Source: an uncultured Eubacteriales bacterium (GTDB lineage: Bacteria; Bacillota; Clostridia; Oscillospirales; CAG-272). From it: 64,000 bases of DNA. The position numbers and the translations under genes are program-made. Shown here piece by piece: positions 56,531 through 63,993 of this stretch. The DNA lies in assembly GCA_905201895.1 (NCBI GenBank), contig CAJKPX010000006.1, positions 2,656 to 66,655 on the forward strand, read 5' to 3'. Position 1 is the first letter of the stretch. Each line of letters starts with the position of its first letter. The notes under the pieces were generated by a model, which did no database searches, was not told the origin of the DNA, and saw only the letters and a program-made list of their open reading frames with translations.

Positions 56531-56578
56531 AAAAAATGAGCCCGCCATCTCCGATGCGAATTTGTCGGAATGGCGGGC
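56531..56578 (-). terminator. rho-independent terminator closing the vWA-kinase-PP2C-HExxH operon
   Basis: Minus strand reads GCCCGCCAT (56578-56570), a loop, ATGGCGGGC (56548-56540), then TCATTTTTTG. Confidence 0.75.
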
Positions 56579-56602
56579 ATTTCGATTGAAAAGCTTGTAA
56601 AA

Positions 56603-57547
56603 TCAGGGCAGCCTTGCGTATTCGGCATCCATGATCTGTCCGATGCGCTGCGCAATGGGACGCGGACGGTCATTGCACATGTATTCGGCAAACGCCTCGG
56701 CAATCAGCTCCTGCGTGGAGGTGGTTGCGTACTGCGAAAGCCCTGCTTGCACGTCATAGGCAGAGAGCGTTCTGACGTAATCAACCAACGAAAATTTTTC
56801 GGACAGACAGCAAAGATAGTCGATCAGGTGTCCGAGCTCGTGATAGACCACCGACTCGGGAGACCAGCACCCCTGCGGATGAAAGCCAGACGCCGCATCG
56901 CGGCGCAGACTGCTGACCAATTGGATATAAGCATAGCCTTCATAGTCATTTTCATCGAGCAGAACGGCATCGAACATCCCAAAGGCAAAGATCGCCATGG
57001 CGATATAGGAGTCCGAGCGCGACAGCATAGAGCCAATCAGATTGCGCATGAGCACACCGAGCCGACGCGCCACCGACTCCTCACAGATATACTGCAGAGC
57101 AAAATCGTGCAGAACCGAGGTGTCGCCACGCATCATACGCTCCATTGCCGCGCAGTAGCCTCGGGGTGAGCCGAGATAGCACATCTTGCTGCGCAGCTTG
57201 GGATACCGGTAGAGCACATTGACCACAACCTTGAGCACACGCTTGAGCCCATAGATATTGATATCGGCAAAATCGCATGCATCGCAGAGCGAATAGCTGC
57301 GGGCAATCTCCTCGAGCTGCCTGTAATTAGAGGCATTTTCAATTGCGTCGATAATTCGCTCTGCGCGGCAGCGCTTCAGATAGGAGCGAGAGAAGCGCGC
57401 GTTGAGCAGCTGCATCTGCTGCACCGTCAGCAAAAGCTCCGCCTTCTCTCCCCCAATGCCCTGAACCGTGAAGCGATAGGGGTGTGCAAGATCGTTGGCG
57501 TGCATCTGCACCGTCCAAGCATGCATATCTATACGTTCAGGTTGCAT
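56603..57547 (-). CDS. HExxH-motif protein, putative gluzincin-type Zn metallopeptidase (314 aa)
   Basis: YHELGHLID (codons at 56828-56842), then LSQYATTSTQELIAEAFAEY ~45 aa downstream. HExxH followed by a downstream Glu within an ExxAExF-type helix is reminiscent of anthrax-LF/MtfA-like minimal gluzincins. The start ATG overlaps the PP2C gene stop by 11 nt; an alternative ATG lies at 57526. Confidence 0.55.
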   Translation of the reverse strand: MQPERIDMHAWTVQMHANDLAHPYRFTVQGIGGEKAELLLTVQQMQLLNARFSRSYLKRCRAERIIDAIENASNYRQLEEIARSYSLCDACDFADINIYGLKRVLKVVVNVLYRYPKLRSKMCYLGSPRGYCAAMERMMRGDTSVLHDFALQYICEESVARRLGVLMRNLIGSMLSRSDSYIAMAIFAFGMFDAVLLDENDYEGYAYIQLVSSLRRDAASGFHPQGCWSPESVVYHELGHLIDYLCCLSEKFSLVDYVRTLSAYDVQAGLSQYATTSTQELIAEAFAEYMCNDRPRPIAQRIGQIMDAEYARLP

Positions 57548-62862: not shown

Positions 62863-62980
62863 CACCCGATGCTCCTTTTTTGTCTTTTTTTGTATAAAAA
62901 GCCAACAAAATGCCGATGGAGGCAGGTAAGTGCAAGCCTTGATGCAACGACTGCGGATGGGACGTGACGGAATGACGAAA

Positions 62981-63700
62981 TCAGAAGAATACGTATTTGC
63001 AAAACCGCTCTGCGAGAGCCTCAACCTCATCGTCACCGAAAAGGGTTGCCGCATTCTCCAGCGGCTCGGAGAAGCAACCGCCGAGCCTCTCCGCCAACGC
63101 CTGATATTTGCTGTATTCGGGTGCGAACAAAATCATTCGCTTTCTTCCCTTGACCAATCGGCAGGCGTCATCCCGATCAATTCCGTTCCATAGGCGGATC
63201 AGCCCCTCCTCGTCAATCATATCGGACGGATATGCCGCCACGGGCTCTCGGTTTTTCAGCTCCAGCGCATCGGCGTCGGAAATAAGCACGATAACCTGGC
63301 GTCCTCGCGCCTCCGTTTGAAAATCCGATTTCATTGCAAGGTAAATGGCTTCAAGCCCATTCTCGCACGGGTCTCCGCCCCCCTCCGCCTCAATGCTTTC
63401 CAGAAGCGCGTCAAATTCATCCTTCTCCTCCGGGAGCTCAAAAAAGAGGCTTTCCTGCATGGCGTTGAAGTCATCGTACAGATAATCGCGAAAAACAATC
63501 ACCTTTACGCGCAATGCGCTGATCCATGCGTCAATCTCCAACGATTTATTCAAAAGCTCGTAGAAAAAGCGGTCGATATTCCGTCTGATACCGTCGATGC
63601 AGGCAGACATGCTGACCGTTCCGTCGATGCAGAGCACAATATCCACTTTTCGCCCTTCTTCTGCAGAATGATGAAGCACGGTGTCCCCCTTCCCGCTCAC
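62981..63700 (-). CDS. third, more divergent TerY-like vWA-domain protein (~239 aa)
   Basis: VDIVLCIDGTVSM ... FRDY ... FFELP ... ENGLEAIYLAMKSDF ... RQVIVLISDADA ... FAPE. Its C-terminus differs from the other two. The preferred start is GTG at 63700, overlapping the Dabb stop (GTGA). The track ORF start (63847) would overlap the Dabb gene by 151 nt. Confidence 0.7.
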   Translation of the reverse strand: MSGKGDTVLHHSAEEGRKVDIVLCIDGTVSMSACIDGIRRNIDRFFYELLNKSLEIDAWISALRVKVIVFRDYLYDDFNAMQESLFFELPEEKDEFDALLESIEAEGGGDPCENGLEAIYLAMKSDFQTEARGRQVIVLISDADALELKNREPVAAYPSDMIDEEGLIRLWNGIDRDDACRLVKGRKRMILFAPEYSKYQALAERLGGCFSEPLENAATLFGDDEVEALAERFCKYVFF

Positions 63701-63993
63701 ACGAAATAGTCGAAGGACAGTCGCTGACTCACCGCGGGACGCACGATGCCGTTTGCAACCGCCTGATGTAGCGGATGAGTTTGATACATCGCCAACGCCT
63801 CCGCATCCGCAAAGGAGGAATCCATCATCAAATCGCCCGAGGAGCATGCCATGCCGTCGGTGAGAATCTGCATGCTCAAAAGCCCGTCGATCTGACCCAC
63901 CAGACCCTCAAGCGCCGCCTTGATCTGGGCTGCCTTTGCCGTTTTGTCGGCAACCTCATCGTTCATCTTCCAGATAATCATGTGCTTTACCAT
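63697..63993 (-). CDS. Dabb-family (stress-responsive alpha/beta-barrel) protein
   Basis: MVKHMIIWKMNDEV...AEALAMYQTHPLHQAV...R..FDY pattern of Dabb dimeric ferredoxin-like proteins (98 aa). Confidence 0.7.
   Translation of the reverse strand: MVKHMIIWKMNDEVADKTAKAAQIKAALEGLVGQIDGLLSMQILTDGMACSSGDLMMDSSFADAEALAMYQTHPLHQAVANGIVRPAVSQRLSFDYFV

Follow-up and report, generated by a model that had tools for sequence, protein, structure and literature searches.

What is the output of an operon that joins von Willebrand factor A (vWA) proteins, a Ser/Thr kinase and a PP2C phosphatase to a putative metallopeptidase, and does such an operon belong to a known family of defence systems? The question is raised by a 64,000-nucleotide stretch (hereafter the window) of contig CAJKPX010000006.1 from an uncultured Eubacteriales bacterium, which carries five such genes on its minus strand. 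We find that this locus belongs to a conserved cassette that is scattered horizontally among gut Firmicutes and whose genes are co-oriented, tightly coupled and co-inherited. The cassette is a long-form relative, and hence a new version, of the already known TerY-P triad, which consists of a TerY-like vWA protein, a PP2C phosphatase and a Ser/Thr kinase (Anantharaman, Iyer & Aravind 2012, as cited in PMC11090510 and PMC4978471).

Read in the direction of transcription, the operon opens with vWA1 (62074-62772; 232 aa), a predicted cytoplasmic protein with a DGTGS (DxTxS) MIDAS-type motif that matches Pfam VWA_4 at 6e-11 and VWA_2 at 1e-6. Its paralog vWA2 (61318-62019; 233 aa) follows after 54 nt and shows weak VWA/VWA_2 matches. 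A further gap of 32 nt leads to the kinase gene (59708-61285), which encodes a Hanks-type Ser/Thr kinase with three C-terminal repeats and whose stop overlaps the start of the PP2C gene (57537-59711; 724 aa) in a 4-nt ATGA at 59708-59711. The PP2C gene in turn overlaps the last gene (56603-57547; 314 aa) by 11 nt at 57537-57547; its product carries the HExxH motif, encoded at 56828-56842. A six-frame listing of open reading frames (ORFs) confirmed all of the gene coordinates, gaps and overlaps given in a first-pass annotation made from the letters alone. All products are predicted to be soluble, as no transmembrane segment was predicted in any of them.

The survey that places this operon in a cassette was anchored on the PP2C family, which spans more than 184 clusters, all of them unnamed and with homologs labelled hypothetical. 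Two PP2C peptide patterns retrieved 46 loci from species-representative genomes, mostly contigs of metagenome-assembled genomes (MAGs), in which ORFs were called mechanically and scored with the window proteins. Thirty-seven of the 46 are long-form loci, from Clostridia, Christensenella, Erysipelotrichaceae, Anaeroplasmataceae and other Bacilli, mostly in animal-gut MAGs. Wherever upstream sequence is available, the long-form loci keep the order vWA(n)-kinase(~520 aa)-PP2C on one strand, with the exception of L024, and cassette genes bear adjacent NCBI locus tags in independent MAGs. The peptidase gene is present in 27 of the 33 long-form loci in which it could be assessed; in 24 of the 33 it lies directly downstream of PP2C, usually with an overlap of 1-20 nt, and in L022, L026 and L028 it occupies another position in the cluster. 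The peptidase homolog P0203, at 32% identity, belongs to a permuted cassette with the order peptidase-vWAx3-kinase-PP2C. Because of this locus, together with L026 and L028, the peptidase linkage can be said to survive permutation of the gene order. The remaining nine loci are short triads, for example in Streptomyces, Chloroflexi and Lachnospiraceae, with a PP2C of ~325-380 aa and a kinase of ~310-415 aa; all nine lack a peptidase gene. A further short triad is carried by Herpetosiphon pHAU01. The survey therefore bears out, across genomes, the co-occurrence of the HExxH gene and the kinase repeats with vWA, PP2C and kinase for which the first-pass annotation had proposed to look.

Several loci depart from this pattern in ways of their own. 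L024 (L024:10001-12821) comprises a long PP2C and a peptidase with no kinase or vWA gene in the 10 kb upstream, and may be a degraded or rearranged cassette. Extra peptidase copies or fragments lie 5-8 kb downstream of the cassette copy in three loci (L012:19731-20606, L013:21237-21890 and L003:18215-18517). A conserved XRE-type helix-turn-helix protein of ~105-140 aa (HTH_3/HTH_26) with an N-terminal VC...C..C..C cysteine cluster is encoded next to the cassette in 17 long-form loci out of 37, immediately upstream of the first vWA gene in some and immediately downstream of the peptidase gene in others (L001-L005, L008, L009, L012-L014, L020, L023, L024, L027, L033, L034 and L048/L049; for example L008:7127-7468 and L009:12857-13246). 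It is likely the cassette's own regulator. The window locus has no XRE-type regulator gene and has a consensus promoter instead.

The kinase is the most readily recognised component. Its catalytic domain (60371..61285, aa 1-305) matches Pkinase at 6e-20, and K42, H150-G-D152-L-K-x-x-N157, D174-F-D176 and S198-P-E200 are invariant in 35 homologs, which bears out the Hanks-type assignment made earlier and predicts an active enzyme. The AlphaFold2 (AF2) model, with a pLDDT (predicted local distance difference test) score of 90.9, shows the kinase domain followed by three small alpha/beta units; Foldseek with the full model recovers eukaryote-like kinases at ~1e-10 and, as it recovers kinase domains only, is uninformative on the repeats. 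The latter (59711..60331; aa 319-392, 393-458 and 459-525) are alpha/beta repeats of ~68 aa that each start with (E/T)PWP(A/E)H in a repeat alignment, with PWP motifs at residues 323, 394 and 463, and the AF2 secondary structure of this C-terminus likewise recurs three times. The repeats matched no Pfam family. Searching 1.84 billion representative proteins with them gave 64 matches, nearly all of which are ~520-aa kinases of the same family. The repeat array, first listed as a departure of this single locus from the triad, is a conserved trait of the family.

The repeats are also linked to the phosphatase. In L022, the PP2C protein (1266 aa, P0346; L022:8714-12514) has kinase-type PWP repeats fused at its N-terminus, and because of this fusion the repeat module can be tied to both enzymes. 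A long low-complexity linker separates these repeats from the PP2C domain, and the peptidase gene lies 5 kb downstream of this PP2C gene, followed by a second long PP2C gene (L022:17710-21150), which suggests a duplicated or composite locus. The repeat recurs in other settings in three further proteins (P0327, P0377 and P0386): one is a Big_2/FIVAR surface protein that ends in it (51% identity over 193 aa), one a MacB/FtsX-type permease protein that has it at the N-terminus, and in the third it comes after LRR_5 repeats. Either a binding module has truly been shuffled here, or the three are chimeras of assembly or gene calling.

Recognition of the phosphatase is less direct. The 724-aa protein has no Pfam match at default thresholds, and its weak direct matches are to SpoIIE (0.004), Stp1 (0.003) and PppA (0.003). 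When its family profile is compared with the PDB, coiled-coil noise dominates and PP2C proteins appear only at 0.003-0.6. By hhalign, however, the first ~310 residues align with the PP2Cs of short triads, three of six of which exceed the Pfam PP2C_2 gathering score, at probability 100 and E 5.6e-40. The PP2C assignment thus stands through its short-triad relatives and not through direct Pfam recognition. Invariant or near-invariant positions in 32 homologs (E16-D17, D31-G-L-G-G, G181-D-S-R, D238-G and D283-D) predict an active phosphatase. The phosphatase domain (58767..59711, aa 1-315) is followed by an extension of ~400 aa (57540..58766, residues ~316-724) that is helical and coiled-coil-like, its PDB matches being only helical bundles and coiled coils, and that ends in a conserved C-terminal motif with invariant columns S673, D676, L684 and R688. 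As with the kinase repeats, this extension had been noted as a peculiarity of the window locus and proves to be a conserved trait of long-form loci, in which PP2C measures ~580-840 aa, with a conserved length class of about 660-840 aa, and 1266 aa in L022.

The fifth gene is the component that sets the cassette apart. At default thresholds, Pfam gives no match for the HExxH protein. Its residues H236, E237, H240, E284 and E288 are invariant in 25-30 homologs; the HExxH motif reads H236-E-L-G-H240, and the distal E284 and E288 lie in an EAFAEY segment that the family profile aligns with EFFAEAF of anthrax lethal factor. Compared with the PDB, this profile matches lethal factor first (4.5e-4) and then Pro-Pro endopeptidases (PPEP/Zmp1), and the alignment with lethal factor covers the HExGHxxD and (S/T)Y(A/G)...E(F/L)(I/F)AEAF segments column by column. 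At E<=0.1, Pfam ATLF (PF07737) is matched by 28 of 30 peptidase homologs, the best at 1.1e-5, and a few homologs carry a precomputed PF07737 annotation. The AF2 model (pLDDT 89.8) retrieves phage 'lethal factor' and MuF-like minor capsid proteins from BFVD by Foldseek, at 7e-6 to 1e-3 and probability 1.0. PHROG 324 ('head morphogenesis') matches the C-terminal half at 5e-14, and the next more distant homolog, P0205, is a protein of a phage structural module. From profiles and model together, we place the protein (first described simply as a putative metallopeptidase) as a distant anthrax-lethal-factor-like (ATLF/M34) zincin with predicted peptidase activity. By sequence it would belong to a clade whose members are used as toxin domains, including lethal factor, the PPEPs and phage MuF-associated relatives. 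With these relatives (ATLF/M34, Pfam PF07737; PPEP; phage MuF 'lethal factor'), which provide its best PDB, Pfam, PHROG and BFVD matches, it shares the HExxH helix and the distal-glutamate segment. Unlike them, it is a predicted cytoplasmic, stand-alone protein of 314 aa without a secretion or virion-targeting domain, it is very divergent (Foldseek-PDB E ~0.5), and its gene is embedded in a kinase/phosphatase operon. The translational coupling of this gene to the triad, once counted among the oddities of the locus, is likewise a conserved trait of the family.

At the other end of the operon, the vWA proteins show how the cassette varies in copy number. The motif CIDGT(G/V)SM is common to vWA1, vWA2 and a third paralog, vWA3; vWA2 is under the Pfam threshold, yet 60% identical to vWA1, and the two are the collinear cytoplasmic proteins with MIDAS-type motifs that were described at first. 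Default Pfam searches, which had been proposed as a check of all products, therefore recognise vWA1 and vWA3 (VWA_4) and the kinase (Pkinase), and leave vWA2, PP2C and the HExxH protein below threshold. The gene for vWA3, which matches VWA_4 at 5e-9 and has a DGTVS motif, extends over 62981-63847 as the longest ORF and probably over 62981-63679, on the minus strand. Its product is 46% identical to vWA1 and 40% identical to vWA2. The first-pass annotation had coupled vWA3 to the upstream Dabb gene through a GTGA overlap at the Dabb stop; the GTGA is present, and it was set aside as the less likely start, since it lacks a site for ribosome binding. Such a site, GGAAGGGGG, stands before the in-frame GTG at 63679, which gives a product of 232 aa that is collinear with vWA1 (232 aa) and vWA2 (233 aa). 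This gene sits upstream of the operon promoter, and we found no convincing terminator between the two. A third vWA copy is not special to this locus, as had been supposed, and fits the range of one to four copies among relatives: a second vWA is present in 18 of the 30 long-form loci that have at least one, the counts being one copy in 12, two in 15, three in 2 and four in 1.

The Dabb gene itself (63697-63993, minus strand, from the six-frame listing; Pfam Dabb 8e-18) had been included in a possible seven-gene unit. It was tried as a system component and ruled out, as no Dabb homolog occurs in any of the 46 related loci or among the recurrent neighbour families; it is an incidental, adjacent neighbour.

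The five-gene unit has a promoter and a terminator of its own. Ahead of vWA1, a sigma-70-type promoter (TTGACA-17-TATAAT, 62862..62834, minus strand) matches the consensus at 12 of 12 positions and is followed by an AT-rich leader of ~60 nt, an AAGGAG and the vWA1 ATG. The 8-kb region contains ten promoter-like sites, of which only two are perfect; shuffled sequence gives 5.3 +/- 2.6. The operon closes at an intrinsic terminator (56578-56531, minus strand) of the form GCCCGCCAUUCCGA...UCGGAGAUGGCGGGC followed by UCAUUUUUU, with a 14-bp G+C-rich stem and a 10-nt loop, the length of which caused a simple scan to miss it. Its folding energy is -24.7 (centroid) to -26.2 kcal/mol (z = -3.5); out of 200 shuffles, not one folds as stably. 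Both signals had been proposed from inspection and are upheld by these figures. Directly past the terminator, a second perfect TTGACA-17-TATAAT promoter, with a TG extension (56519-56491, minus strand), drives the next gene (55200-56519), which encodes a lipoprotein with CE2_N/GDSL-lipase domains; since this gene has a perfect promoter of its own, the transcription unit is well delimited on its downstream side. The genes that follow encode an AraC regulator (54252-55100) and a Metallophos/SASA protein of 1447 aa (49753-54096). An Rfam scan of the locus found no RNA element.

How does the long form compare with systems already described? The three core domains of TerY-P have homologs here, adjacent on one strand and without Ter genes, as the first-pass annotation had recognised. 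The likeness is borne out by the PP2C alignment and by the 39% identity between vWA1 and its vWA counterpart in the short triad of Herpetosiphon pHAU01. The locus thus shows the domain architecture by which TerY-P is defined, namely vWA, PP2C and Hanks-type kinase in conserved adjacency, with a relation of its vWA to enterobacterial TerY undetected by tblastn: a single-sequence search with vWA1 against 72,556 plasmids at E<=1e-3 gave 15 records, none of them enterobacterial. The gene order is vWA-kinase-PP2C, whereas the recovered short triads show vWA-PP2C-kinase or PP2C-kinase-vWA. The C-terminal fusions reported for TerY-P kinases in the citing literature are an OB fold (Gao-type) and a zinc ribbon (CoCoNuT-type) (PMC11090510), whereas here the kinase ends in three alpha/beta repeats. 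The long form further differs from TerY-P in a ~45-aa insert and the helical tail of PP2C, a vWA copy number of one to four, a dedicated ATLF-like peptidase and, often, a Cys4-XRE regulator.

A second point of comparison is provided by the vWA-centred conflict systems described by Kaur, Burroughs, Iyer & Aravind in 2020 (PMC7159879), which include an actinobacterial combination of kinase, PP2C and stand-alone vWA. The common logic is that of a vWA protein with regulatory enzymes and, in some cases, peptidase effectors. Unlike those systems, the cassette has no MoxR/AAA+, VMAP or GTPase component; their kinases carry a zinc ribbon plus a beta-rich domain or transmembrane helices, and their rare metallopeptidase effectors are fused to the vWA. 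MADS Mad6, the Mokosh MkoA-type kinase region, PD-T4-6 and Stk2 resemble the cassette in their Hanks-type kinase domain; these systems have other partner genes, the vWA/PP2C/ATLF set being absent from all of them. The best PADLOC and NCBIfam matches of the kinase are mad6, MkoA and PD-T4-6, all far below cutoffs, such as 62 bits against a cutoff of 460 for the NCBIfam equivalog NF047741 (MAD6). An attempt at a system-level assignment of all seven products through PADLOC, NCBIfam and PHROGs returned generic kinase matches and PHROG 324 only. The TerY-P match by PADLOC that had been predicted for the locus did not materialise; PADLOC has low power here, as three short triads likewise fail to match through their vWA or PP2C. 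Full-text literature searches gave no description of the long-form arrangement, nor did a curated family covering it come to light, in agreement with the earlier impression that the five-to-seven-gene configuration was undescribed, and no published mechanism of TerY-P sensing or action, the primary TerY-P papers being known via the papers that cite them.

The genomic surroundings offer a further view of what the cassette may do. Beyond the window, context was read on the same contig as a 53-kb ENA gut metagenome scaffold (ERZ28575012 scaffold_529, locus L047). Upstream of Dabb (L047:474-5943) lie an HD+AAA_33 gene and an RNA_ligase gene (PF09414) that resemble a pair for RNA repair. They are followed by two unknown genes and a gene of TIR/ThsB-like type, and then by a tRNA-Ser(GGA) gene (L047:1379-1470) and an adjoining integrase gene of the tyrosine type. 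The cassette looks to be at the edge of a tRNA-linked accessory region; no convincing att-like direct repeats flank the island on the source contig. No TerB/TerC/TerD/TerZ-type gene is found among the Pfam-annotated called genes within +/-10 kb on the source contig, and over that range the triad does stand apart from Ter genes, as had been stated for the window. A widespread relative, present in 111 blocks of the collection, lies between type IV secretion system (T4SS) coupling-protein/FtsK genes and an S24 peptidase gene and is, because of these flanks, taken to be part of a conjugative element. Relatives of the long PP2C were not found in IMG/VR viral contigs, and the cassette is therefore apparently not phage-borne. 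Among the 102 immediate neighbours of 30 loci, TIR_2 occurs 5 times, in some cases as TIR-LRR_5 fusions, along with two viperin-like radical-SAM proteins, GajB, a DRT reverse transcriptase-helicase, IetA and an SNF2 helicase, these tallies being raw counts without a matched control. The neighbours suggest a defence-island or mobile-cargo setting.

The TIR-LRR_5 genes form a recurrent group of their own, with an N-terminal TIR domain and BspA-type LRR_5 repeats (L008:13046-14899, L020:13043-14854, L004:13084-14166 and L012:4722-6380). In L004, L008 and L020 they lie directly downstream of the peptidase gene. The next gene in L008 encodes a DUF4231 protein, with which the corresponding ORF of L020 clusters. 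These TIR-LRR genes may serve defence independently of the cassette or in cooperation with it.

Taken together, these observations lead us to favour, with slightly better than even confidence, an account in which a phospho-switch gates the peptidase as the output of a defence cassette that is carried as mobile cargo. The kinase and phosphatase, whose catalytic residues, like those of the peptidase, are intact across 30-35 homologs each, would form a reversible phospho-switch. The shared repeat module would dock both enzymes on a common partner, for which the vWA proteins or the peptidase are the simplest candidates, and the switch would gate the peptidase. Upon a trigger such as phage infection, the peptidase would cleave a host or invader protein, which would stop the infection via abortive infection or direct inhibition. 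The cassette would travel as accessory cargo of defence islands and mobile elements. A role against phages or other mobile elements is inferred by analogy, both with TerY-P-like triads, which are reported to act as stand-alone anti-phage systems against T7-like phages (Gao et al. 2020, as cited in PMC11090510 and PMC7699616), and with the ALF-type metallopeptidase toxin domains (PMC3482391).

Several points weigh against this account. The kinship of the peptidase to its assigned family is remote: against Pfam ATLF, the window protein reaches 13.8 bits, below the gathering cutoff of 27.4, and the PDB entries to which Foldseek gives the highest probabilities (PPEP-3, LF and PPEP-2) have E-values of 0.5-3, which are not significant. 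The peptidase could be a processing enzyme rather than an effector, and it is missing from 6 of the 33 assessable long-form loci, so that the triad can stand alone. No model in PADLOC-DB 2.0.0 matches vWA1-3, PP2C or the peptidase, and the kinase matches other families. As for mobility, the tRNA-Ser gene is oriented as if the island of the integrase itself stretched away from the cassette, locus L050 lies among ordinary metabolic genes without a mobile-element marker, and the recurrence of defence genes next to the cassette lacks a control for comparison.

A more specific version of the proposal, which we put forward as a tentative possibility, is that the ATLF-like protein is a phosphorylation-gated intracellular toxin protease and that the repeats are a sensor or docking domain reading a phage cue via the vWA proteins, the whole forming a self-contained anti-phage system.

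The roles of kinase and peptidase may also be reversed, with the kinase as the effector. The ATLF-like peptidase would then activate or reset the system by clipping a vWA protein, inhibitory repeats or the PP2C tail, and PP2C would limit self-damage. In other kinase-based defences, a triggered kinase is proposed to phosphorylate numerous proteins of host or phage; the cassette kinase is nearest to defence kinases among the models of PADLOC and NCBIfam, albeit far below their cutoffs. The short triads and the six long-form loci without a peptidase are consistent with this scheme, and the close coupling in translation of kinase, PP2C and peptidase would suit a regulatory complex. We nevertheless regard it as unlikely: ATLF-like domains are otherwise toxins or secreted endopeptidases and not housekeeping processors, the peptidase is kept even where the gene order is shuffled, and no conserved linker resembling a cleavage site was identified.

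Somewhat harder to sustain, in our judgement, is the possibility that the cassette has no part in phage defence and is a physiological stress or signalling module, for metal or envelope stress or for a developmental checkpoint in spore-forming Clostridia, in which the peptidase cleaves a cellular regulator. Sensing of metal or envelope stress was the role originally suggested for the Ter-linked form of TerY-P (2012, as cited in PMC11090510). A setting among metabolic genes at some loci, the dedicated XRE-type regulator beside 17 of 37 loci and the Dabb 'stress-responsive' gene adjoining the window locus point in this direction. The Dabb gene is not conserved, however, and Ter genes were not found nearby. 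The patchy distribution of the cassette, with its variable chromosomal position and vWA copy number, also argues against such a module, as do the relative on a conjugative element and the recurrence of TIR and other defence genes beside the loci.

Finally, that the five genes are incidental neighbours or an annotation artefact, with the HExxH ORF and the extra domains unlinked to the triad, is scarcely credible even though the PP2C and HExxH products lack a default-threshold Pfam match and their homologs are all hypothetical, since order, strand and overlaps are conserved in dozens of genomes down to 30-35% identity, the catalytic residues are invariant, the AF2 models are of high confidence, the genes bear adjacent locus tags in independent MAGs, and identities of 30-60% exclude near-identical copies of one mobile element.

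If the tentative reading of the ATLF-like protein as a phosphorylation-gated toxin protease is true, the cassette would provide the first lethal-factor-type peptidase acting as an immune effector inside bacteria, as well as a mechanistic handle on signalling by the TerY-P triad. Here is a natural variant that joins a recognisable enzymatic output to the triad, so that TerY-P sensing and action become testable, and the repeat module common to kinase and phosphatase points to a shared docking partner. The cassette also adds an uncharacterised PWPEH-repeat domain and a distant ATLF clade that has phage virion proteins as its closest kin. For the gut Firmicutes that carry it, the cassette represents a candidate defence system that is common in animal-gut Clostridia and goes unrecognised by PADLOC models.

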